From Nitrosopumilus sp. (GTDB lineage Archaea > Thermoproteota > Nitrososphaeria > Nitrososphaerales > Nitrosopumilaceae), in NCBI GenBank assembly GCA_965205675.1, contig OZ242186.1, forward strand, positions 896,001 through 960,000: a stretch of 64,000 nucleotides of DNA, read 5' to 3'. A program made the translations under genes and the position numbers. This document shows positions 3,382 to 64,000 of the stretch, in pieces (within the stretch, counting starts at the first letter, position 1; each line of letters begins with the position of its first letter). The notes under the pieces were generated by a model. That model saw nothing but the letters and a program-made list of their open reading frames with translations, was not told the DNA's origin and ran no database searches.

Positions 3382-4644
3382 TTATTGCTTTCTTGGATTT
3401 TTATAATTAAATTTATTTATCTTTATCAATTCTACATAAGATCCAAACTGGGTATCTGTAACATTGTCTAGTTTGTCTTCTATTTTGTTATCTTTATCAA
3501 ATTTTTTCAAAATTTTATAATGTGTATTTCTTTCAGCAGGGATTCTTCCAATCTCTTTTGTCATCCTTCTAATTTCTCTTGGTTTGAGTAATTGACCATA
3601 CTCTGAACCTGCTGATGTTGAAATACTTTCATTTATTAGAGTTCCCCCAAAGTCATTTGCTCCCCAATTTAGTAATAGCTGAGACATCTTTTGTCCTTCT
3701 TTTACCCATGACATCTGAATATTGTCAATTGAATTGTTCAACATTATTCTTGCAACTGCATGAGTAAGTAAAACGTCGTTTCCGCTTCCTCCTTGTCTTA
3801 TTCCTTCATATAATTTATGTTTGTACATTGGTGCTTCTGTATGTATAAAGTTTAATGGTACAAACTCTGTAAATCCTCTTGTTTCTTTTTGAATGTCTCT
3901 TAATTTTGCAATATGTTGTATTCTGTCTTTCAATGTTTCCACATGTCCAAACATCATAGTTGAGGTTGTCTTGATTCCCATATTGTGGGCACTTTTGATT
4001 ACTCTCTCCCAATCTTTTACACTAATTCTTCCTGGGGATATTTTATCTCTTAATTTTTGATCAAGTATTTCTGCTGATGTACCTGGAAGTGTATTTACTC
4101 CTGCCTCTTTCAATCTTTTCAAAAATTCCTCAACTGATACGTTTGAGCAAGTTGCCCCGTATAGTATCTCTTCGGGAGAAAATCCATGAATATGAATATC
4201 TGGAATCTCTTTTTTGATTTCTCTACAGATATTTTCATACAAATCCCCTTTCATGTCTGGTGGAAGTCCTGCTTGAATGCATACTTCTGTTGCTCCTAAT
4301 TGATGTGCTTCTTTTGCTCTGCGTACAATCTCCTCAGTTGGTAAGAAATATCCTTCCTCCTCTCTAAAATCTCTACTAAATGCACAAAAACCACATTGTT
4401 TGATACAGACATTTGTAAAATTGATGTTACGATTAACTACATATGTTACAGTATCTCCTGCTCTTCTTTTTCTTAGTTCATCTGCCACCAGCCCAACTAG
4501 ATGAAAGTCTATTCCTTGAACATTGAATAACTCTAATCCTTCTTTTACAGATGTTTCTTTCTCTGATAAAGCATTGTTTAGAATTTCTGTTATTATGGGA
4601 TCTGCATTTCTGAAAAGCGAGTCTATGTTTATTGTCATCTCCAA
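3382..4644 (-). CDS. cofH: FO synthase subunit CofH (radical SAM)
   Basis: NRNINFTNVCIKQCGFCAF CxxxCxxC motif, GANDFGGT; adjacent to cofG. Confidence 0.9.
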   Translation of the reverse strand: MEMTINIDSLFRNADPIITEILNNALSEKETSVKEGLELFNVQGIDFHLVGLVADELRKRRAGDTVTYVVNRNINFTNVCIKQCGFCAFSRDFREEEGYFLPTEEIVRRAKEAHQLGATEVCIQAGLPPDMKGDLYENICREIKKEIPDIHIHGFSPEEILYGATCSNVSVEEFLKRLKEAGVNTLPGTSAEILDQKLRDKISPGRISVKDWERVIKSAHNMGIKTTSTMMFGHVETLKDRIQHIAKLRDIQKETRGFTEFVPLNFIHTEAPMYKHKLYEGIRQGGSGNDVLLTHAVARIMLNNSIDNIQMSWVKEGQKMSQLLLNWGANDFGGTLINESISTSAGSEYGQLLKPREIRRMTKEIGRIPAERNTHYKILKKFDKDNKIEDKLDNVTDTQFGSYVELIKINKFNYKNPRKQ

Positions 4645-27329: not shown

Positions 27330-27429
27330 AACCTTTTATGATAATATTTAACATTTTCTAAATTATTACTTATAAGTATTGTGGTCTTCGGTTCTGTGTA
27401 ATCTTCGAGACCCAAAATATTGATCTTCT

Positions 27430-28697
27430 TCAGATTGAATTTTCCTTATGTAGACTAGCATTTTCAATGATAGTTTTCCACTTGTTCTTACCGTCAATCT
27501 CAATCATTGAGGCCTCTGCTGGTGTTCTACCCTTTAATGCCTCATGTTTCTTTGTGAAATTATAGTAGACCTTCATTCCCTCGATAAGTGGCGTGTCTAT
27601 TCTCTTTAATCCCCTGAATACCTTTTCTCTGTCTCTAATAGTTCCATTGATTCGCTCCATCTTGTTGTTGTTATCACGATCTCTTTTACCTGCAATGTGA
27701 ATATGCCTAACGTGGTTTGTCTTCTTTCTAAAAACTTTCTTTGAGGATTTCATATATGCCTGTAATCCATCAGTTATGAAATTTCTTGGAGATTTCCCAG
27801 CTTGTCTTTTGGTCAATTCTAGTAAATTATCCGTATTATGATGAAACTTGTTATCTGCCATGTCTGAAGCCAACCAATATCTAGTATCATCATCCATTGA
27901 GGCAAATAGATAACACTGTTCACCATTTACCTTAACCCATACCTCATCAGCACGAAACCAGTTTCCAACTCTTGGAACTATGCAATTAAGATAAACTGAT
28001 GTTAGTTTGGAATATTGAGTTATCCAGTTATAGATAGTCTTGAATGATACATCAACACCCAACATCTCATAATGATCTGCAATTTTTCTAACGGACATTC
28101 CTGAATAGTACATCTGTAATGCTCCAGTTATGGTATTTTCATTTGACTGTTTTTTCCCAAAACCAAAGTTAGCAGTAAACCTACGTTTGCAGTCCTTACA
28201 CTTGAAAACTTGAACATCACCAGATTTAGTCTTACGCATACCCTTTTTTATTATCTTACCTGAATCACAGTATTTACACAGAGCTAGTTTGGAACGCTCT
28301 AAAATCTTGAAAGTATTGTTTTTCCTACATTGATTATTCTTGATTACATCTAAGACTATTTTGATGTGTTTACAGTCTGCTTTTCGGACTTGATGGTCTT
28401 TGCACTTACATCTTAACCCATTATCAGTTCTTGATACAGTATAGACGTCTTGCGTAATTATTTCTAGGCGTGAATTTTGCTGCAGGATTTTTCAAATGAG
28501 TTGAGAAATTTGAATTTTCAGGTATGAATTCTGTTAAAATACAAAATTTGAGAAAAAATCGCTATAATTACGCAAGAGGTCTTATAACGATTTTTTGGAT
28601 TCGTTTGAGAACGAACACTAAAATTATTTGAATCTAGTTGAGAACAATATCCTTTTGTTTCCATAATTTGTTTGGCTCTTTGTATTCTTGCGTTCAT
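27430..28697 (-). pseudogene. IS6-family DDE transposase with N-terminal SWIM-like Zn finger, interrupted by a MITE
   Basis: ADEVWVKV, ITDGL, NNKMERINGT; removing the MITE plus one TAT restores MNARIQRAK...NPKNRYTVSR...CKCKDH..CKH. Confidence 0.88.
28443..28582. mobile_element. 140-bp MITE
   Basis: 18-bp TIRs agacgtcttgcgtaatta / taattacgcaagaggtct, TAT duplication; TIRs match the element at 54057-55137. Confidence 0.92.
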
Positions 28698-29115: not shown

Positions 29116-29820
29116 TTGAGTGTTTTTTCGTCTACAAGAACATTGACTACGCCAAAAGTAACATTACCCCCACGTCTAAAAATCAACAAGAAATTAAAAA
29201 TGGATGGATTGAAATTTCTTTCAAACATACCTGATGATAGTATACCAGTATCTTTTTTTGATCCTCAATATAGAGGAGTATACGAACAAATGAAATATGG
29301 TAATGAAGATACTTCAAGAAATCACAAGCGAGTTGAAATTCCTCAAATGAGTAATAATACAATCTCTGAATTTATCTCTGAAATTGCACGTGTGTTGATT
29401 CCATCGGGACATTTGTTTTTATGGTTGGACAAATTCCATTTATGTACGGATCATAGAGAATGGTTTGAATCTACGTGCCTCAACACTGTTGATATGATAA
29501 CATGGAACAAGAAAAAGATTGGATTGGGGTATCGTGCAAGACATACTAGTGAGTTTTTATTAGTTTTACAAAAAGAACCTAAAAGAGCTAAAGGATGTTG
29601 GACATTGAGAAATATTCCTGATGTGTGGGATGAGAAAATCCCCCCCCCCCAACACAAAAAATATCATCATACAAAACCAATAGATTTACAGACACGACTT
29701 ATCAGAGCTGTAACCAATGAATTTGACTTGGTTGTTGATCCAGCAGCAGGTTCATTTTCAGTTTTAGAGGCTTGTAATACTGCTAATCGAAACTTTTTGG
29801 GTTGTGATATTAGAAGATAA
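29116..29820 (+). CDS. N4/N6 DNA methyltransferase (beta order)
   Basis: FFDPQY (motif IV) precedes HTKP and VVDPAAGS (motif I). Confidence 0.88.
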   Translation: MSVFSSTRTLTTPKVTLPPRLKINKKLKMDGLKFLSNIPDDSIPVSFFDPQYRGVYEQMKYGNEDTSRNHKRVEIPQMSNNTISEFISEIARVLIPSGHLFLWLDKFHLCTDHREWFESTCLNTVDMITWNKKKIGLGYRARHTSEFLLVLQKEPKRAKGCWTLRNIPDVWDEKIPPPQHKKYHHTKPIDLQTRLIRAVTNEFDLVVDPAAGSFSVLEACNTANRNFLGCDIRR

Positions 29821-30493
29821 AATGGTCAAATTATCAGATACAAAAATAAAGAAATGTCAAGGTGAGGCATATTTCAGATGTTTTGGGAATCAACAGTTAG
29901 CGTCTCTTTTGAGTAGAACTCAGTCATTGGTGATAAAAAATGGTAATGACCTTGAAGATATGATTTTAAAAAGAGTGAACATCATAGACAATCTTGATAA
30001 ATACCTTGAAACAACAAACCATCAAGGAATATCAGTAGTGCCTAAGACAAGTATTAAAAAATCAAACATCATCAAGTTTGATGGTGTTGAACCTGATTTC
30101 ATGGTGTTTGTAGAAAAGGATAACAAAAAAGCATGTCATTTGATAGAACTAAAAGATGGATGTGAATTTGATACAAAATCATCAAGTGCAGAAAAAGAAC
30201 ATTTGTATGAATTTATCAGAAAAAACGCACAAAAAATGCAATATACGTTTGATGGCCATATTTGTTGTTTTAATAAAACATCTCGTGAGGAAATAGTAAA
30301 AGGATTCAAGAATAAGATCACAAAAGACGATGCCTTGACAGGTCGTGAATTTTGTGAATTGTTAGAAATTGATTATGATGATATTGTCAACACTCGTAAA
30401 AAAGACAGAGAATCCAATTTGGATTATTTTCTTAAGGTTGCAATTATTGATAAAGAATTACATCTAAAACTAACAAGTTTACTTGCAAGATAG
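29804..30493 (+). CDS. Putative type II restriction endonuclease
   Basis: EPDF...IELK PD-(D/E)xK motif; overlaps the MTase. Confidence 0.7.
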   Translation: MILEDKMVKLSDTKIKKCQGEAYFRCFGNQQLASLLSRTQSLVIKNGNDLEDMILKRVNIIDNLDKYLETTNHQGISVVPKTSIKKSNIIKFDGVEPDFMVFVEKDNKKACHLIELKDGCEFDTKSSSAEKEHLYEFIRKNAQKMQYTFDGHICCFNKTSREEIVKGFKNKITKDDALTGREFCELLEIDYDDIVNTRKKDRESNLDYFLKVAIIDKELHLKLTSLLAR

Positions 30494-31356
30494 CCAAACA
30501 TAACGTCTTTCCCTCAATCTGAAGAAGATCAATATTTTGGGTCTCGAAGATTACACAGAACCTGGTCTTCGGATTCTGTTGTTGTATCCCAAAATCAGTT
30601 CGTCCCTTATTTGACATCGTATTCTTCTCCTGTCTGCTCATCAATAACTCTTGTTCCTTTCCCTGGCATCTTTCTTGCATATGCCTTTACAGGGGTCTCA
30701 AGATTATCCCAGTCAAGTGACATGTGTGGCTTTATGTGGTTGTACCAGTGGACCAGCTCATCAATGGTGCCAAACCATTTCTGCTTTCTCTGAATCTCGC
30801 CGTGAAATCTTTCGAGCTTGCCATTGGTTTGAGGATGGTTCACTCTTGCCATGATGTGTTTTATTCCAAGTCTAACCAGTTCTTGCTCAAACTGTGATGC
30901 TCCTTTTCTCTTGTATTCTGATTGGTTTGCATAAAATTGGGAGCCATGATCAGTTAGAATTGATGCAGGCCTACCGTGCTTTGCAATTGCCTCATGTAAT
31001 ACTACAAGTGCGTTATCTGTTGTTGCCTCTGCAAACACTCCATGAGAAACGATAAACCTTGATGCGTCATCCTGGTAACACAGAAACCATCTGCCATCGT
31101 CTAACTGCTTCCAGTCAGTATGCCACATGGAGTTTGAATATGTCCTTTCATATCTAACCCACTTTCGCCTTCTCCTCTTCTTTGGCTGATCTTCTGCCAA
31201 CCCCTCATCTCTCATAATTTTGTGTATGGTATTGTGAGGTATGTGTGTTCCAGTGGTATCAATTATTTTCTCCAGGAATACTGCAGAACACCTGAACTTT
31301 TCAAATGTAGACTGGACAGTCTGTACCATCTGCTCTGTAATTATCCATGTGAATTG

Positions 31357-31372
31357 TTTTTATACATTTCCT
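31357..31372 (-). promoter_or_regulatory. Outward-facing BRE/TATA at right end of IS110-B
   Basis: Minus strand reads aggaaatg-tataaaaa, about 15 nt inside the element end. Confidence 0.55.
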
Positions 31373-31379
31373 CTCTTTC

Positions 31380-31550
31380 CATACATCAGGGCATGGCTTT
31401 CGCTAGAGAATGGTTTCAATCAAAAGATGGCAGACATGTATCCATACGAGACTATTCTCTCAATGCTATCTTCATCCTAGTTAGGATTGTTCGCAGTTAT
31501 TAGACGAGGCCTTGTCCCTCAATAATTACAACGCGACTTGCAGTCCTAAC
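31380..31550 (-). ncRNA. Bridge/seek-type guide RNA of IS110-B (ends approximate)
   Basis: Stems tcgc/gcga, gagg/cctc, gaga/tctc; loop tgtaattat is the reverse complement of B's right flank ataattaca; atggata and atag match B's ends. Confidence 0.75.
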
Positions 31551-32660
31551 TATAATTTTGTACAAATTCTCTCCTCTCCTTTAACATCCAATAAATCACC
31601 CTCAGGATCTTTGATGCACCAGCTACTGCAGCTTTGGATGATCCTCTTTTCTTTTTAATGCGATTGTAAAATTTTGTAATGTCACTATCCTTGGCATGAA
31701 TTGCATGAGTGTGTATGCATTCTGTTAGAACCCATCTCAATGTCATGCTTCCCCTTTTTGTTATTCTGCCATGGTGTATTGTATCTGCAGAGTTTCTAAC
31801 TGATGGTACAACTCCTGCATATGCACACAGTTTGTGAGAATCATTGAATCTCTCAATATCTGCAATCTCTGATGCAATGACAAGCGAAGAATAATGCCCA
31901 ATTCCCGGAATCGAGTTTATCAAAATTGCATCAGGATTAACTTTTACAGCAGCATACACTTTGGAATTAATCTCTGCAATCTGTAAATTAAGGTGGCTGA
32001 TTTGTTGCAAGAATCCGTCTATTCTGTAATCTCCTAGTGCCTTGAGTCTTCTGTTGTATGTTTCAGTGAATGTAACTCCTGGAATCCTGATTCCTTCCTG
32101 TAACAATATTCCATGAACTGAATTCTTGACAGATGTTCTCCATTGGATTAGTTTTTTCCTATATCTTACAAGCTGTCTTTGTTGTACAATCTTTTTGTCT
32201 GGAACATAACATGTGGCAATGTATCCTCCTCGTAAAAGATCTGCCAATATCTTGGCATCAATCTTGTCTGTTTTCTTTTTTGATGTAGCAATTGCCTTTG
32301 TCAAATATGGGTTTGAGAGTGTGACGTTTTTGTATCCCAAAGTATCTGTGAGAAATCGATACGTGTCATACCAGACTGATGAGGATTCCATTACAATATT
32401 TGCAGAAATTGGTATTTTTGCAAAATGCTTTTTTATGGATTCATGCGTGTTATCCACTTTGTCATTTTGTAATACTTTGCCTGCATCATCCATTTATTAC
32501 TTGAAGAAACTTCTTGTGCAGGTCAATGCCCACAAACATGCCTTTCTTTGGATTTTTTCTAATCTGTTTGTTTGTAATCTTTTTTGGAGCCGAGTATTTA
32601 CGAACCTTGGAACTAGATTCATTTTTTATGCTATCTGATTTCCTTGCTTTCTTATTCACA

Positions 32661-33994
32661 TATCCATGTGAATCCCTTTTAACTATTGTCGGTATTTTTG
32701 CCATATTAATTACAGCTTACGCTAATACACTCATACTTTCAATCACAGATGAAACCAGACACATATCCATTCGGGGTTCTCCCCCAGTACCATCTTCATC
32801 CATTTATTAGGTGAAACCGCGGTTATAGTTTCGAGGTATTATGCATCCTCAATGTGAAAACGCGGCCAAACTCCTAACTGTAATGTTTTACAAATTATTG
32901 ATGACATTGAATAAATTCTCTCCTCTCCTTTAACATCCAATATATGACACGCAATAACTTTGATGCAGCAGCAACTGCTGCCTTTGAGGTCCCCCTCTTT
33001 TTCTTAATGCGATTATAAAATTTTGTAATGTCGCTATCTGGTGCGTATCTAACATGTGCATGAATTGCCTCCACTAGCAACCATCTTAGCATGGTGCTTC
33101 CTCTCTTTGTAATTCTTCCGTGATGTATTGTATCTGCAGAATTTCTCACCGATGGAACAATCCCTGCATATGCACATAACTTGTGAGAATTTGAAAATCT
33201 GCTAATCTCTGCAATTTCTGAGAATATGCTCAATGCAGTGTATGGTCCAACTCCAGGTATTGATGTCAAAATACACACATCAGAATTATCATTTACCATG
33301 CGACGTATCATGGAATCTATCTTTGCAACCTCCTTTTTGTGAAATTTTATGCTTTGTAGGTACGAATCTATTCTATAACTCTCCAATTTTCCAAGTGCAC
33401 GTATGTGTTCTGAGGAAAATGGTGTTGCTTTGATATGGATTCCCTCCTGTAGTGTAATACCATGTATGGAATTCTTCATCTTTACAATGATGCGCACAAT
33501 CTTGTGTCGATGTCTTACAAGCTGTCTGTATTGCACAATTGTGTGATCTGGCACAAATGATTCTGCAATGTATCCCTCCTCGTAGCAAATTTGCAAGATG
33601 GTACGCATCAATTTTATCAGTCTTTTTGAGTGATGATGCTATTATCTTTGTGTTGTATGGATTAGATAGTATAACATCAAGATGTAATTTGTCTGTCATG
33701 TGTCTATAAAGGCCATACCAGACAGATGATGACTCTAAAACATATTTTGCGTTCTTTGGAATTTTGGATGTAATTTTGCTAATAGCAGAAAAATCACTGG
33801 AAATCTTTTTGTTAAATAATAATTTGCCAATCTCATCTACTGCTGCCACCTGTACAGAGTTCTTGTGAACATCCAATCCTACAAACATCAAATATTTTTT
33901 TTCAGGAAGGGTAGTGTGTTTGTTTGCATTTCTTACTTTCTTGATACGAATGCAAGTACCATCTAATTTCCTAGCTGATTTTGGCACATATGGT
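32661..33994 (-). mobile_element. IS110/IS1111-type element A, copy 1 (1334 bp)
   Basis: VGLDVH, VLESS, KTDKIDA, SVRNSA; near-identical to 57076-58409; transposase 32895-33987 with a frameshift. Confidence 0.95.
32705..32885 (-). ncRNA. Bridge/seek-type guide RNA of IS110-A, copy 1 (ends approximate)
   Basis: Reverse complement of the copy-2 RNA at 58185-58365. Confidence 0.75.
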
Positions 33995-34155
33995 TATAGT
34001 TATTCCCTTTGGCCTTCCAGGCTTGCCTAGAATCGGAATTGCACCAGTACGGCGATACCGTGAGTAGAGTTTCTGCACCCACCGAACAGATATCTTCATG
34101 GATGAGGCTACGTCTGCGTTCTTGGCACCATCCTCTTTTGACTTGATTATCCAGG

Positions 34156-35545
34156 GTAACTGTCTAGAGTTTTGAAGTAAAATCTCCAAGATATTCTAAA
34201 GAATAATCATGAAAGTTTAATCCTCGTAATCTGCATGTCTCCTTTATACTCATCAGTATCTTATGAGAATCAGCACCATGAATGGTTCTATGACCGTTTG
34301 TAATTTTACGAATTATCACATTTGGTCTGATTGCCCTCTCTGCTGTGTTATTGTGTGAATCAGTTCCAGTAATTAGGAATGTAAAAAGCATTTTTCTCTC
34401 ACGTTTCAATCTTTTTACAAACCTGATACAGTTTTTCTCTGTGTATTTTTTTGATATGATGTGATTAATTCTCCTTTCAAGATTCTTTTTTGCATGGATT
34501 CTTTCTGATTCTGATTTTATTTTTGCCACACCATGAGAGTCATAAATTATTTTCTTGAGATTCTTGGCAAATGGTGCAAATTCTGGTCCGGGATTCTTGT
34601 GATTAATGGTATCATTAACCTCTCTGAGATAATGGATGTGACATTTCTGGTGAGTGCTTCCAACATGGTTCCATGCAGGGTACGAATCACTTGTAATGTT
34701 GCCATCATATCCCTTGAGAATTCTCTTGGGAACATCCATTGAACGTGATTTGTCAATCTCGTAAATTACAGTCCATTTACTCACAAATGCCCACAACCAG
34801 TGGTTCTGGCCATCTACCCTCCAACTTGTCTCATCACCATGTATGTTTAGATCTTCTTTTAACTCCACAATCATTGTATCATATCTGCTCCCAAATGCTT
34901 TTGATACTATTGATACTGCATGATTAATTGCAGATTCTGTAATGTGCAGTGAGAAGAGCATCTGCAAAAGATGAGATATTTTACCATACGATAATCCGAT
35001 AGTTTTTAGTGATGTGATTAGCACCATGAGCCTAATTCCAAACCTTTCATTTGACAGTACAGTGTGAATGTTACCCGAGATTTGTTTTTTGCAGTTTGTG
35101 CAGTATCGTCTAACTATCGTATATTTTGTCACAACTGCTTTTGCAGGAATGATGTCTTCTACTATTCTGGTGTATGAATCAGTTGGTTCTGAGAGTGATT
35201 TGCCACATGTGTTGCACTCTTTTTGGTCAACTGTAATGGCATCATCAATGTGTGCCCGTCTGCTTCTGCTTTTTCTAGGATGTCTTGATGTTTTCTTCTT
35301 TTTTGCAGTTTCAGTCTTGTTTGGTTTTGCTTTGATATTTCTTGCAACAAGTGTAGACACTGTTTGTTTTAGTTCTGCAATTTCTCTGTGTAACTGACGG
35401 TTTTCTTGCTCCAACGAGTGACATCTGTTGCGATAATATTCCAGCTCATCATATACTGACAATTGTATATTGTAATTTGTCACTGATCAGAAAAGATATA
35501 GATAAAAAATATTAAAGAAAGTACTTCAAAACTCTAGACAGTTAC
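34156..35545 (-). mobile_element. IS66-family single-ORF element; transposase 34164-35483 intact
   Basis: 24-bp perfect TIR gtaactgtctagagttttgaagta, 8-bp TSD tatccagg; HGDETSW, HQKCHIH, NNTAERAIRP. Confidence 0.95.
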
Positions 35546-35663
35546 TATCCAGGATATCTGGATTGGATCTAACTTTTGCATAATCTTGTGATTCTTTCCT
35601 CTTTTCCAAACGTATCTTGACTTTAGTCTGGAAATGATGGGGTGAACTAATTTGAGGATAATA

Positions 35664-36176
35664 GAGTCTTCGAACTTTGTTTCCCAATTCTGCTTAACAC
35701 TTTCATTCTCAAAACAAATCAAACATCTAATTCTGATTCATCTCCTGTGCTAATGCATCATCAATCATCAAATTGTAAATCATGACCTTGAATTTTATCT
35801 CCCTTATCACGTTACACCAAACTCTGGCTGAAATATTCTCTCCAAGAACTCTCTTGAATGTGGAAATTGCAATCTCTGCAGACCAGCGTCTTCCATAACC
35901 AACTCTAATTTTCCATTTGTTTCTATTCTGTATCTTTTGCTCATTTGTTAAATGATTAAACATTTTCACATTTTTACGATTCATTTTACAATTGCCAAGC
36001 TGCATGAAACCTTGCTTCTTTCTTGCAGTGCTTTTATTTGCCTTACCTGAGAAATTCTTTCTTATTGGAATAATTGGAATTGCATTTCTCTTTTCACATT
36101 CATCAAAATTGTCTTTGGAATCATATGCACCATCGGCTAGAACCTTGATTACATTTCCTTTCTGTGATGCTTATGC
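35664..36176 (-). pseudogene. 3' half of an IS5-family transposase abutting the cofC 3' end
   Basis: VLADGAYDSKDNF...GYGRRWSAEIAISTFKR; similar to 39599-40465. Confidence 0.8.
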
Positions 36177-57033: not shown

Positions 57034-57081
57034 CTTGCACTTGTACTTGCACTTGTACTTGCACTTGTAACCATAACCATA
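57034..57081 (+). repeat. Hexamer-phased array (cttgca cttgta)x3 (accata)x2 at IS110 left junction
   Basis: Read directly from sequence. Confidence 0.95.
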
Positions 57082-58409
57082 TGTGCCAAAATCAGCTAGG
57101 AAATTAGATGGTACTTGCATTCGTATCAAGAAAGTAAGAAATGCAAACAAACACACTACCCTTCCTGAAAAAAAATATTTGATGTTTGTAGGATTGGATG
57201 TTCACAAGAACTCTGTACAGGTGGCAGCAGTAGATGAGATTGGCAAATTATTATTTAACAAAAAGATTTCCAGTGATTTTTCTGCTATTAGCAAAATTAC
57301 ATCCAAAATTCCAAAGAACGCAAAATATGTTTTAGAGTCATCATCTGTCTGGTATGGCCTTTATAGACACATGACAGACAAATTACATCTTGATGTTATA
57401 CTATCTAATCCATACAACACAAAGATAATAGCATCATCACTCAAAAAGACTGATAAAATTGATGCGTACCATCTTGCAAATTTGCTACGAGGAGGGATAC
57501 ATTGCAGAATCATTTGTGCCAGATCACACAATTGTGCAATACAGACAGCTTGTAAGACATCGACACAAGATTGTGCGCATCATTGTAAAGATGAAGAATT
57601 CCATACATGGTATTACACTACAGGAGGGAATCCATATCAAAGCAACACCATTTTCCTCAGAACACATACGTGCACTTGGAAAATTGGAGAGTTATAGAAT
57701 AGATTCGTACCTACAAAGCATAAAATTTCACAAAAAGGAGGTTGCAAAAATAGATTCCATGATACGTCGCATGGTAAATGATAATCCTGATGTGTGTATT
57801 TTGACATCAATACCTGGAGTTGGACCATACACTGCATTGAGCATATTCTCAGAAATTGCAGAGATTAGTAGATTTTCAAATTCTCACAAGTTATGTGCAT
57901 ATGCAGGGATTGTTCCATCGGTGAGAAATTCTGCAGATACAATACATCACGGAAGAATTACAAAGAGAGGAAGCACCATGCTAAGATGGTTGCTAGTGGA
58001 GGCAATTCATGCACATGTTAGATACGCACCAGATAGCGACATTACAAAATTTTATAATCGCATTAAGAAAAAGAGAGGGACCTCAAAGGCAGCAGTTGCT
58101 GCTGCATCAAAGTTATTGCGTGTCATATATTGGATGCTAAAAGAGAGGAGAGAATTTATTCAATGTCATCAATAATTTGTAAAACATTACAGTTAGGAGT
58201 TTGGCCGCGTTTTCACATTGAGGATGCATAATACCTCGAAACTATAACCGCGGTTTCACCTAATAAATGGATGAAGATGGTACTGGGGGAGAACCCCGAA
58301 TGGATATGTGTCTGGTTTCATCTGTGATTGAAAGTATGAGTGTATTAGCGTAAGCTGTAATTAATATGGCAAAAATACCGACAATAGTTAAAAGGGATTC
58401 ACATGGATA
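57076..58409 (+). mobile_element. IS110/IS1111-type element A, copy 2 (1334 bp)
   Basis: Starts accata-tgtgcc, ends ttcacatggata; transposase 57083-58175 with the same frameshift as copy 1. Confidence 0.95.
58185..58365 (+). ncRNA. Bridge/seek-type guide RNA of IS110-A, copy 2 (ends approximate)
   Basis: Loop 1: ccgcg[ttcacat]gagg..cctc[aactata]cgcgg; loop 2: gatgaa[atggt]gggg..cccc[atggata]..ttcatc. Confidence 0.78.
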
Positions 58410-58612
58410 TGTGAATAAACAACGAAATTTAGATGGTACTGCTGATTCTATAGTTTCTAAAAGATACATCTCCAAGAAAAAGCCAAAGAAAATCATTAGA
58501 GCTAGAAAGACAAAACCCATGACCTATGTCGGAATTGATTTGCACAAAGAATTCTTACAGGTCGAAACAATGGATGATAAAGGACATACATTATTCAATG
58601 AAAAAATTACAA
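58410..58612 (+). pseudogene. 5' part of a third IS110 (element C), truncated by IS630
   Basis: Starts tgtgaata like B; YVGIDLHKEFLQV..MDDKG. Confidence 0.85.
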
Positions 58613-59758
58613 TAGTTTAGGCATATAAATTTTGAACGAATTATCAACTATTTTAACCCAAAAGATCTAGATCATAGTTTATACTTACAGAATCATGTCA
58701 AAACAAACTAAAGCATTAATGGTATCTTCAGGAAGCCATTTCATGAAAGGAACAAGCATTAATTTTTTAAGAAAAACATGCAAGAATGAAAAAAATGCAA
58801 AAGCAAAGATAAGATTAAAGGCTGCAATACTAAGAAAACAAGATATTCCATATTCTGTGATATGTGCCAGTTTGGATGTCATACCATCAACTCTGTCCTA
58901 CTGGCTAAATCGAATGGATAAAGAGGGAATAACTGCATCACACCGTAAGGAATATTCTGGCTCTAGATGTTTCTTAAATAAAAAACAACTAGTGTCATTA
59001 AGAGATGATCTAATTTCAGGTCCAGAAAAGTTTGGATTCAATCAATTCATGTGGAGTACAAGAATGGTAATTACACATGTGAATAAAAAATACAACACGC
59101 TATACTCTGCAAGAGGAATGCGTGAATTGCTGCACAGAATCGGATTCTCATCTAAAAAACCAAGACAGACTCATCACAAATCAGCCTCAAAAGAGGAACA
59201 AACCCGTTTTAAAAAAACGCAAAAAGGAGTATCAAAAAATATTCCAAATTGGGATACACCACACTATGTCTGGATGAGTCAACAAATAAAGTAGCACCCA
59301 ACATAAAGCGCAGATGGTATCTTGCAGGCAATAACATTACCACACCAATTAATTACACTCGAGAAAAATTTCAATCATTTGGTGCATTGGGCAATAACGG
59401 TGTATTTTTTTGCAGGTTCTATGATAAATCAAACACAGACTCATTTCTTGATTTTTTAGAATCACTGCAAAAACAATTTGGTAAGAAATTGTTACTGTTT
59501 GCAGATAATGCATCATACCACAAAAGTCTCAGAGTAAAAGAATTTCTCAAAGCACCAAAAAATAAAGTAATAATTAGATATTTTCCTGCATACACACCAG
59601 AACTCAATCCAATTGAGATACAGTGGAGAGAAGAGAAAAATGGTAATGCCAATACATTCTTTGCAAATGGAACTGAAATGAAAAAACACATGCAGAAGAG
59701 ACTAGATAATGGAGCGGTTCGAGTTGTTAAAGTATTCAAATATTTAATGCCTTAACTA
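58613..59758 (+). mobile_element. IS630-family element; ORFs 58695-59294 and 59249-59755 joined by probable -1 frameshift
   Basis: Imperfect TIR tagtttaggcat / atgccttaacta; ttttaaaaaaac slippery run at about 59207-59218; LDES, DNASYH, PAYTPELNPIE. Confidence 0.9.
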
Positions 59759-59941
59759 TATCCTTTGATAAACGTAAAATCTAGCAAGAGAATCAAAATC
59801 CTTGAATCCTAATGCCTTTGCAAGTATGGGATTAATTGCACTTTCATCAATCATTCTTTCAGCAGATAATTTTTCAATAATTACGGATGCATTCTTTACA
59901 AAATTTGCCAGAAGTTCCTCAATTTGTGCCTCTTTTGACAT
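59756..59941 (-). pseudogene. N-terminal fragment of a putative restriction endonuclease, cut by IS630
   Basis: ORF downstream of the C5 MTase; its stop falls inside the IS630 end. Confidence 0.5.
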
Positions 59942-63226: not shown

Positions 63227-64000
63227 GTAACTGTCTAGAGTTTTGAAGTACTTTCTTTAATATTTTTTATCTATATCTTTTCTGATCAGTGACAAATTAC
63301 AATATACAATTGTCAGTATATGATGAGCTGGAATATTATCGTAACAGATGTCACTCGTTGGAGCAAGAAAACCGTCAGTTACACAGAGAAATTGCAGAAC
63401 TAAAACAAACAGTGTCTACACTTGTTGCAAGAAATATCAAAGCAAAACCAAACAAGACTGAAACTGCAAAAAAGAAGAAAACATCAAGACATCCTAGAAA
63501 AAGCAGAAGCAGACGGGCACACATTGATGATGCCATTACAGTTGACCAAAAAGAGTGCAACACATGTGGCAAATCACTCTCAGAACCAACTGATTCATAC
63601 ACCAGAATAGTAGAAGACATCATTCCTGCAAAAGCAGTTGTGACAAAATATACGATAGTTAGACGATACTGCACAAACTGCAAAAAACAAATCTCGGGTA
63701 ACATTCACACTGCGCTACCCAATGAGAGATTTGGGATTAGGCTCATGGTGCTAATCACATCACTAAAAACTATCGGATTATCGTATGGTAAAATATCTCA
63801 TCTTTTGCAGATGCTCTTCTCACTGCACATTACAGAATCTGCAATTAATCATGCAGTATCAATAGTATCAAAAGCATTTGGGAGCAGATATGATACAATG
63901 ATTGTGGAGTTAAAAGAAGATCTAAACATACATGGTGATGAGACAAGTTGGAGGGTAGATGGCCAGAACCACTGGTTGTGGGCATTTGTGAGTAAATGGA
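63227..64000 (+). mobile_element. Second IS66 copy (partial; transposase from 63289)
   Basis: Same TIR and near-identical sequence to 34156-35545, inverted. Confidence 0.95.

Follow-up and report, generated by a model that had tools for sequence, protein, structure and literature searches.

Probable bridge RNAs of IS1111-type elements in a Nitrosopumilaceae archaeon carry target loops that track their insertion sites

Introduction

RNA-guided target choice by insertion sequences of the IS110 and IS1111 groups is established, and to our knowledge all characterised recombinases that work with a bridge or seek RNA are bacterial. Here we describe related IS110-family elements, types A, B and C, in a Nitrosopumilus sp. 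(a marine archaeon that oxidises ammonia), starting from a 64,000-nucleotide stretch of its DNA (the window; positions 896001-960000 of a complete 2.01-Mb genome of 33.7% G+C). On the minus strand of the window, at 31344-34000, an A and a B element lie in tandem and are 72-76% identical over their alignable segments. We found that A and B carry, directly after the recombinase stop codon, an RNA module of about 120 nt with a common scaffold, and that the target loop of this RNA changes together with the DNA into which the element has inserted. These are very probably genuine bridge or seek RNAs of the IS1111 type, and A, B and C members of that type in a Nitrosopumilaceae archaeon; the placement in the IS1111 group is by layout (position of the RNA, inverted repeats, guide order), while the proteins matched, IS621 and ISCro4, are both of the IS110 group.

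IS1111 elements are described as carrying their RNA in the right end and as having sub-terminal inverted repeats of 7-17 bp (PMC11208160). In the account of IS1111 seekRNAs given in PMC11187229, the matches to the top strand lie 5' of the matches to the bottom strand, and the guide order of IS1111 is described as reversed relative to that of the IS110 group. Of the IS1111 entries in ISfinder, 93% are reported to have a predicted bridge RNA. As for archaea, 662 IS110 recombinases are listed as catalogued (bioRxiv 2024.06.21.599552), and a 2026 preprint presents clusters of noncoding regions beside IS110 recombinases across bacteria and archaea.

The elements described here are like those of the IS1111 group (ISEc11, ISKpn4, ISPa11, ISPst6; PMC11187229, PMC11208160) in that a DEDD recombinase gene is followed by a long noncoding right end that encodes the RNA. 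They also share with that group the sub-terminal inverted repeats, the 5' position of the top-strand guide, precise site-specific insertion and the existence of relatives that differ mainly in their guide loops. They are unlike it in their archaeal host (Nitrosopumilaceae), in a scaffold that is absent from Rfam, and in that matches to the covariance model that we built of this scaffold (R1) occur only in this archaeal family. In the literature covered, no description of a bridge RNA from archaea was found; the family may already be listed in Supplementary Table 5 of PMC11208160 or in the cluster tables of bioRxiv 10.64898/2026.10.21.760802. Because right-end bridge or seek RNAs of IS1111-group elements have already been published, the archaeal host is the main new element.

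Results

The RNAs of A and B share a scaffold whose five helices covary

The following features define the RNAs of the two elements:

31432-31550, minus strand: B bridge RNA module with helices P1-P5, from alignment and structure
to about 31420, minus strand: T-rich tail of the B RNA, CCATCTTTTG
32757-32878, minus strand: A bridge RNA module, from alignment and structure

A prediction made from the letters of this locus alone (the original prediction) held that the A and B RNAs have a common scaffold and different loops. In our alignment this was confirmed, with a common order of GTTAGG..CGCG-[loop]-GAGG..CCTC-[loop]-GCG..CCTAA..GGATG-[loop]-hairpin-[ATGGATA..]-TGTCT. The predicted span of the RNA, to 31380, was too long; the module ends near 31432, in P4, and the T-rich tail runs to about 31420. 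The helices are P1 (GTTAGG/CCTAAC), P2 (TCGCG/TGCGA), the P3 hairpin, P4 (GGATG/TGTCC) and the P5 hairpin, and in each of the two modules a stem encloses a hairpin and an internal loop of about 10 x 10 nt. Against model R1, the B module scores 160 bits.

The predicted stems covary. In a discovery alignment of 25 RNAs (7 from the source genome and 18 from relatives, out of 37 variants in hand), 98.3% of cells were paired and 10 of 24 pairs showed compensatory changes, a result that none of 500 shuffles reached; controls in which the alignment was slid were 31-47% paired. A second set came from 27 of the 30 loci found with model R1 (three source-genome loci were omitted) and comprised 28 RNAs from 18 other genomes. 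In this set, for which the alignment was fitted to model R1, 97.0% of cells were paired, 15 of 24 pairs showed compensatory changes and again none of 500 shuffles reached the observed value. Compensatory changes were seen in all five helices. For the helix that closes module 2, we also tried GGATG/CATCT, which was 91.2% paired with no compensatory pair, as compared to 100% and one compensatory pair with TGTCC; because of its better pairing, TGTCC was kept as the partner. CATCTT can also pair with AAGATG of the loop, and an alternative fold may exist.

Matches to model R1, whose E-values are rough, were found in 19 of 151 Nitrosopumilaceae genomes (the source genome counted) and in 8 of 27 genera. 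Loci fetched with the type C protein came nearly all from Nitrosopumilus, Cenarchaeum and other Nitrosopumilaceae assemblies, and all relatives with the RNA are Nitrosopumilaceae. On five bacterial loci (L054, L066, L068, L069, L072) whose recombinases, the nearest bacterial ones, are 27-36% identical, and on a Thermoplasmatales locus (L065), R1 gave nothing better than E = 0.8, which shows only the limited reach of the scaffold model. A search of Rfam over 30000-36000 returned no family, the two hits being at chance level (E = 0.48 and 0.92).

Both strands of the target loop track the insertion site

The strands of the target loop in the two window elements are as follows:

31521-31531, minus strand: B target loop 5' strand, the right target guide TTGTAATTATT, complement of A-TA-ATTACA
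31496-31504, minus strand: B target loop 3' strand TCTAA-TA-AC, made up of left target, core and B's own left-end start (handshake-like)
32851-32860, minus strand: A right target guide TTTTCACATT
32822-32830, minus strand: A left target guide AACTATAAC

The two strands of the target loop are complementary to opposite target strands around the core, and they track the target. The 5' strand carries core and right flank as their reverse complement, and the 3' strand reads as left flank, TA and AC(Y). In B, the plus strand at 31522-31530 reads ATAATTACA and the minus-strand RNA TGTAATTAT, which is 9/9 complementary to A-TA-ATTACA, just as the original prediction stated for the right flank. Among the 10 B right ends of the source genome, 8 are flanked by ATAATTACA and 2 by ATAATTATA, a variant compatible with G.U pairing. 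ATAACT precedes 6 of the 8 solo B left ends (AATAACT in five), and TCTAATAACT, a full 10/10 match, precedes one. The claim that the left guide of B matches only aata thus describes the copy in the window and does not apply to B in general. The claimed guide order stood: along the RNA, the guide for the top strand comes first (5') and the guide for the bottom strand second, as published for IS1111 seekRNAs in the account of PMC11187229.

To quantify how closely guides follow flanks, we compared each guide with its own flank and with permuted flanks. The discovery set consisted of the source genome and the loci fetched with the type C protein (81 motif hits, of which 71 could be parsed, 70 with a right end; the left end was located in 54 of the 71). 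For the right guide (19 loops, 43 guide/flank combinations), the mean longest exact match was 6.67, compared with 3.87 ± 0.27 after permutation, and 0 of 20000 permutations reached it. The guides ACAATCATA, TGATTCATA (in several copies), AGTTGTCTG and ATGTGTTTA, read as reverse complements, match their own flank at 9/9 positions and ACATATAAA at 8/9; several guide/flank matches were read by eye. For the left guide (12 loops), where the score was confined to the 5-6 nt upstream of the constant TA-ACY, the mean was 3.52 against 1.82 ± 0.29, again with 0 of 20000 permutations. Loops therefore track insertion sites across homologues on both flanks, as had been proposed.

The second set was picked by a model built on the discovery set and blind to the guide loops, and the right end of each locus was located by that RNA's own 7-nt donor guide, which left 23 of the 28 RNAs and 22 guides for the right-guide test. 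Here the mean was 5.32 against 3.38 ± 0.21 (0 of 20000 permutations), and matches of at least 7 nt were found for 7 of 22 self pairs as compared to 1 of 462 cross pairs. Among the 25 loci with upstream sequence, a 9-nt left-guide probe lay exactly and directly before CATATGTG or TACATGTG in 4, and with one mismatch in 2 more.

Empty sites place the element boundaries at a TA core

The window elements and their ends are:

31344-32660, minus strand: element B, main body, from the A insertion point to the right end ...TTCACATGGA
31342-31343, minus strand: TA core at the B right junction, with the right target ATTACAGAG from 31341 down
33997-34000, minus strand: displaced left-end tip ACTA of B, with the TA core at 34001-34002 and the left target ...CCAAAGGGAA from 34003 up
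32663-33994, minus strand: element A copy 1 (A1), ACCATATGTGCC...TTCACATGGA, with flanking TA at 33995-33996 and 32661-32662
57076-58407, plus strand: element A copy 2 (A2), 99% identical to A1, with its RNA module at 58192-58313
58410-58612, plus strand: left part of a C-type element, TGTGAATAAACAACG..., with the start MTYVGIDLHK; the rest is interrupted by another insertion sequence

On the minus strand, the right junction of B reads TTCACATGGA-TA-ATTACAGAG, with the right end at 31344-31353. Solo B copies start directly after TA with ACTATATGTGAATAAG and finish with TTCACATGGA directly before TA. The source genome also holds two paralogous empty sites, ...TTTTCCAA-TA-ATTACATAAAATTAG and ...AAATCCAA-TA-ATTACAATTGAG, which share the pattern ...CCAA-TA-ATTACA.... 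From the solo copies and these empty sites, B is therefore ACT...GGA (ACTATATGTG...CACATGGA) with TA on either side. A left end at ATATGTG with a 7-nt core ATATGTG was ruled out, since the empty sites put the start 3 nt earlier (ACT/ACC) and the core at TA. Of the ATA/TA core first proposed, TA is borne out by the paralogous and population empty sites, and ATA is not.

For the window A+B insertion, contigs of all four other runs examined contain an empty-site joint from 31340 to 34000, which skips 2659 nt with 4 nt ambiguous and implies a clean site ...CCAAAGGGAA-TA-ATTACAGAGCAG.... This target lies 12 nt upstream of the ATG of an rve-type transposase gene (30607-31329, minus strand) that belongs to a different insertion sequence. 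Because it sits in the leader of a multi-copy rve-type element, the contigs with the empty joint may be paralogous or from other strains and not allelic. A search within the genome for the empty site of the window A+B copy gave 0 matches, and the same held for four other sites. The left flank of the A+B composite is common to three genomic copies, which places the B target inside another multi-copy element.

The source genome has 9 A copies with a full RNA region, 10 B right ends and 4 C copies, with intact C copies lying outside the window, plus fragments and hybrids. In agreement with the IS1111-like layout seen in the original prediction (RNA downstream of the recombinase, sub-terminal repeats), B and C have 7-bp sub-terminal inverted repeats, with TTCACAT at a distance of 3 nt from the right end and ATGTGAA at 5 nt from the left, and A has 5-bp ones, CACAT / ATGTG. 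The noncoding right end of B, from stop codon to element end, spans about 200 nt (31546 to 31344). The left end has 7 nt before the GTG and about 110-140 nt before the canonical M..GIDLHK.

Two side observations concern copies of the family. An A/B hybrid at about 754.4-755.7 kb (locus L076) has A sequence to about nt 1150 and is B-like beyond; its own guide TGAAATTTA matches its flank ATAATTTCA at 7/9 positions, and the hybrid is evidence of recombination between family members. In a relative (locus L045, OZ250170), one RNA copy (RNA region 3519-3760) is interrupted within the donor loop, and the inserted piece holds the reverse complement of that family's intact target, CTTTGC-TT-GATTCATAC, an incidental empty-site sequence.

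The donor loop agrees with the element's own ends, strongly on the right and weakly on the left

The strands of the donor loop, together with a same-sense copy of its 5' strand, are:

31463-31472, minus strand: B donor loop 5' strand AAGATAGCAT, in which AUAG pairs CTAT of the left-end tip ACTAT
31437-31446, minus strand: B donor loop 3' strand TATGGATACA, in which ATGGA-TA equals right-end tip plus core
32787-32796, minus strand: A donor loop 5' strand AAGATGGTAC
32762-32771, minus strand: A donor loop 3' strand AATGGATATG
32628-32636, minus strand: same-sense copy of the B donor 5' loop, AGATAGCAT, inside the B left end
33956-33964, minus strand: the A counterpart of this copy, AGATGGTAC

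The second loop is complementary to the element's own ends; this holds strongly for the right-end side and weakly for the left-end side. On the right, the donor 3' strand (A/U)AUGGA-UA equals the right-end tip plus core, and ATGGATA matches the right ends of both A and B (CACATGGATA), as predicted. The 7-nt right-end guide was found exactly in 21 of the 28 second-set loci, 47-93 nt downstream and preceded by CACAT, and 27 of 31 distinct variants have a donor 3' state (GGA, AGA or GGG) in accord with their right-end tip. On the left, AUGGU of the donor 5' strand pairs ACCAT in types A and C, and AUAG pairs CTAT in type B, which bears out the assignment of ATGGT to the left tip ACCAT of A and of ATAGC to the left tip ACTAT of B. 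At locus L099, GUGAU stands opposite ATTAC where others have AUGGU and ACCAT, which amounts to two compensatory changes and one wobble; the handshake position of its target loop likewise reads AT in place of AC, matching its own left end. Over all loops, the match of the donor 5' loop to the left-end tip was 4.53 as compared to 4.12 ± 0.16 after permutation (192 of 20000), a weak signal. The donor-loop covariation rests on few states. By eye, the 2-4 nt that follow UA in the donor loop match the right target in A, C and the variants U17, U18, U28 and U30, and this extension resembles published handshake guides.

In 11 of 14 elements, the donor 5' loop has a further, same-sense match of 8-10 nt, which falls in the N-terminal coding extension, 30-44 nt into the left end. 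This copy covaries with the RNA loop (6.82 against 5.52 ± 0.33; 2 of 20000 permutations), and the two change together through at least six states (..TAC, TAG, TTG, TGC, TAT, ..CAT). The joint change would imply a shared complementary partner; a conserved reverse-complement partner of the donor 5' loop was looked for inside the elements and none was found. The copy may thus mark a third base-pairing contact, with the bottom strand of the left end (as an extra RNA-DNA donor anchor) or an antisense RNA as candidate partners.

These patterns bear on a reading in which only module 1 is a guide, in the narrow sense of a seekRNA. Module 2 would then be a scaffold that binds protein, the ends would be recognised through the TTCACAT / ATGTGAA repeats, and the ATGGATA match would be a conserved motif kept by descent. 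The donor ends are nearly invariant (CACAT is 96-100% conserved in 47 right-end tails), so that few states test the pairing; the left-tip signal is weak, and the donor 5' loop has its better match elsewhere in the left end, which is not expected from a simple donor model. For ISEc11-type elements, seekRNAs as short as 82-96 nt are also described as sufficient (PMC11187229). Against it, the right-end states change with the RNA loop in more than one lineage, L099 carries compensating changes at the left-end tip together with the matching handshake position, and both modules have the same 10 x 10 nt internal-loop architecture, as in IS621. We consider this reading improbable, and in what follows we take both modules to be guides.

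Type A guides fit the left ends of sibling elements

A1 is inserted at the TA at nt 5-6 of the B left end, so that the joint reads ACTA-TA-[A]-TA-TGTGAATAAG, and A2 is inserted at the equivalent position in a C-type left end. The strands of the A target loop, AAACTA-TA-AC and the complement of ATGTGAA(A/T), are the sequence around the TA 4 nt inside the B and C left ends. Each of the 9 A right ends runs directly into TA-TGTGAATAA (8 of B type, 1 of C type), and each of the 16 A left ends is preceded by AAC[TC]A-TA. Tandems of A with B or C also occur at loci L044, L052 and L048 of other assemblies, and the guide of relative U17 fits ATGTGAAT at 8/8 positions. With its guides set to ACTA-TA-TGTGAA, A is always found 4 nt inside a sibling left end, and hence the A-B tandem of the window.

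The tandems could instead have arisen by homologous recombination or local tandem expansion and not by programmed insertion of A. Tandem and nested IS110 loci are reported in bacteria (in the account of bioRxiv 10.64898/2026.08.14.744561), and there are signs of recombination between copies in this genome, namely the A/B hybrid at 754-755 kb and copies with a common left flank and different right flanks. That origin is very unlikely, given the exact fit of both target-loop strands to the sibling left ends, the identical junction in all nine copies with two sibling types and its recurrence in other assemblies, and the fit of the U17 guide. Programmed insertion of A is therefore the reading that we keep. 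Type A may be a hyperparasitic or array-building element that lands between a sibling's tip and its start codon. Repeated ATAACC units upstream of some copies would fit repeated insertion of A into its own similar left end followed by loss.

The recombinase and a predicted junction promoter

The protein-coding parts and the putative promoter elements are:

31546-32493, minus strand: B recombinase open reading frame (ORF), 315 aa, DEDD_Tnp_IS110 and Transposase_20, with its stop codon TAG within P1
32486-32660, minus strand: N-terminal part of the B recombinase including GIDLHK, in another frame
32895-33987, minus strand: A recombinase, split into 33373-33987 and 32895-33611 by an extra G near 33574
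31357-31364, minus strand: TATA-like box TATAAAAA in the B right end, 13 nt from the element end and facing outward
32676-32683, minus strand: TATA-like box in the A right end

The B ORF contains PF01548 (3.8e-19) followed by PF02371 (3.5e-21), and the two A pieces carry one domain each. The type C protein is intact (369 aa from the GTG in the left end) and aligns over its full length with ISCro4 (9t56, E = 4e-12) and IS621 (8wt6, E = 6.5e-12). Its GID, ME, KTDKID and RNS motifs align with D11, E60, D102, D105 and S241 of IS621, which are given as the catalytic residues in PMC11208158; the catalytic E is offset by one column in the IS621 alignment and in register in the ISCro4 alignment. A basic N-terminal extension of about 36 aa is apparent, beginning at the GTG in the left end. 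We considered the frame breaks of A and B as a sign of non-autonomy or of programmed frameshifting, and dropped this idea, since contigs of other runs show both frames unbroken.

The TATA-like box has a fixed position at -21 to -14 from the right end in 47 of 47 distinct right-end tails (about 20 genomes), where it is preceded by AAT(G). Its A+T content is 0.87-1.0, also in relatives rich in G+C. When the right end is joined to the left end through TA, the box ends 23 nt before an in-frame GTG (left-end nt 8-10) that opens the recombinase frame. In archaea, the TATA box of promoters is centred near -26/-27 and leaderless mRNAs are frequent. The position of the box suggests an archaeal junction promoter that would give a leaderless recombinase mRNA, and it may act as a circle-only switch, with the transcript of recombinase and RNA made only from the circular or tandem form.

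Neighbouring features in the window

The insertion sequence that truncates the C element after about 200 nt (58410-59760, plus strand) has two overlapping ORFs, 58695-59294 and 59249-59755. The region around 34156-35545 is dense in insertion sequences. A 439-aa ORF (34164-35483) lies there between 43-nt imperfect terminal inverted repeats (34156-34198 / 35503-35545), and the repeated element at 34772-35545 recurs at 63227-64000 as a 774-nt inverted copy with 99% identity. On the other side, a run of 11 C (29640-29650, plus strand) inside a DNA methylase ORF (29116-29820, N6_N4_Mtase) could be either a homopolymer error or a tract subject to phase variation. An inverted repeat with two perfectly matching arms of 49 nt (27390-27438 / 30514-30562) encloses about 3.1 kb with the methylase gene and an ORF without a Pfam match (29804-30493); its second arm lies just past the end of the rve-integrase gene, and the repeat may represent the ends of another mobile element or a composite.

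Discussion

Taken together, our data point to the following model. Each element would encode a DEDD/Ser recombinase and a bridge (seek) RNA of about 120-150 nt that starts at the stop codon and has two modules. By analogy with IS621 and ISEc11, the RNA would probably arise from the 3' portion of the recombinase transcript, with its end at the T-run, and would bind the recombinase. In module 1, the 5' strand of the target loop (9-10 nt) is predicted to pair with the top strand of core and right target. The partner of the 3' strand (left target, TA and the initial 2-3 nt of the left end of the element itself) would be the bottom strand of left target and core. After strand exchange, the module 1 3' strand would pair with the incoming left end, in the manner of a handshake guide. 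In module 2, the donor 3' strand AUGGA-UA would recognise right-end tip and core, followed in several lineages by 2-4 nt of right target, and the donor 5' strand AUGGU or AUAG would pair with the left-end tip ACCAT or ACTAT. Recombination of the target TA with the TA of the joined ends would then give a precise insertion with TA on both sides. The circular intermediate and the order of strand exchange in this model are likewise modelled on IS621 and ISEc11, and reprogrammability is suggested by natural variation among the sequences.

Several observations weigh against this model, in addition to the weak left-tip signal of the donor loop. Self matches are no longer than 4 nt in 3 of the 19 discovery loops (ATAAGGCTGT 2, TTAAAATTGTT 4, TTTTAGATGTT 4), and 6 of the 22 second-set guides match by 3 nt or less. 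The degenerate copies E78k, E505k, U06, U19 and U29 show no guide/flank match by eye, and from lineage to lineage the right guide moves by ± 1 nt in its register to the core. The permutation counts are not exact probabilities and overstate independence, because the families compared are related. In the window copy of B, the left target GGGAA fits the guide TCTAA at only 2 of 5 positions; the left guide of B is poor here because of this target and because A sits 4 nt inside the B left end. By eye, the handshake-like donor extension has no match in B, U02 and U27, and in U19-25 it depends on which right-junction variant is taken. Both recombinase frames are broken in this assembly, A by one extra G and B by a 2-nt gap early in the gene. 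The extra base of A near 33574 is missing in contigs of the four other runs (all of the depth in X1, X2 and X4, 67% in X3), and three runs contain a B variant whose frame is restored by two additional bases (32495-32497), so the frame breaks may be strain-specific or assembly errors. A joint of right end to left end, as in a circle junction, was not seen among the contig joints of the four runs, and contigs drop rare forms.

That the conserved 3' region is an ordinary 3' untranslated region, a terminator or a protein-binding DNA site, with loop/flank matches due to chance in an AT-rich genome (33.7% G+C, in which AATAATTACA occurs 57 times) and without an Rfam family to match, has next to no probability and already fails on the covariation and permutation tests, given compensatory changes in all five helices, guide/flank matching that none of 20000 permutations reached, for the left and the right flank and again in the second set, and at least ten different 8-9-nt guides that match their own flank (for example ACAATCATA, TGATTCATA, AGTTGTCTG, TATGAAAAA and ATACTGGCG).

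Beyond the two-module guide model, it is a tentative and on balance doubtful suggestion that the elements carry all of three layers not present in the published IS621/IS1111 model, namely the third contact, the hyperparasitic A type and the circle-only switch.

Few known systems for programmable DNA insertion are as compact as the bridge or seek RNA recombinases. The family described here offers a natural reprogramming series, in which one scaffold of about 120 nt carries more than 40 guide pairs that can each be read against their own insertion site, and the simple TA core and the empty sites fix the geometry and provide a design table for loop swapping. Its hosts are mesophilic ammonia-oxidising archaea, for which there are few genetic tools, and a native RNA-guided insertion system could help. 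For the biology of mobile elements, the family shows target diversification in a single genome that holds three guide types, one of them specialised on the ends of its relatives, and the junction-promoter idea is maybe recast here in archaeal promoter grammar.

IS4321 and IS5075 reportedly insert into the inverted repeats of the Tn21 family. ISEc21, as described in PMC11187229, targets transposase genes of the IS3 family. Like these elements, type A is aimed at a sequence that exists only in other mobile elements; unlike them, its target is the left end of a sibling, 4 nt from the tip and upstream of the start codon, which leads to head-to-tail arrays. In the main texts of the limited literature covered, we found no description of targeting of a sibling left end.

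The RNA architecture is like that of IS621 and ISCro4 (PDB 8wt6, 9t56; as described in PMC11208158): there are two pseudo-symmetric modules of stem, internal loop and hairpin, the loop strands pair with opposite strands on either side of a 2-nt core, and there are handshake-like extensions of 2-3 nt. Read in the opposite orientation, the loops would map onto IS621 as presented there, with the 5' strands as bottom-strand guides of 8-9 nt including the core and the 3' strands as top-strand guides followed by the handshake positions. Conservation extends to the catalytic D, E, D, D and S. In contrast to IS621 and ISCro4, the RNA is encoded downstream of the gene in the right end and not upstream of it in the left end, the guide order is reversed and the core is TA, not CT; the protein similarity is distant (E about 1e-12), and the N-terminal extension of about 36 aa is an apparent addition here. 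Compared with many IS1111 elements, in which the donor part is described as multi-loop (Durrant et al., PMC11208160), the donor part here is a simple, IS621-like internal loop. Finally, the right end is like those that form the junction promoter Pjunc of ISEc11 and IS621, in that a putative promoter element faces outward at a fixed distance from the right end and would be placed before the left end and the recombinase gene by joining of the ends. The difference lies in the element itself: the IS1111 group has a -35 box, and here, judged from its position and composition, it would be an archaeal-looking TATA box at -21 to -14, 23 nt from the GTG, from which a leaderless mRNA is expected.

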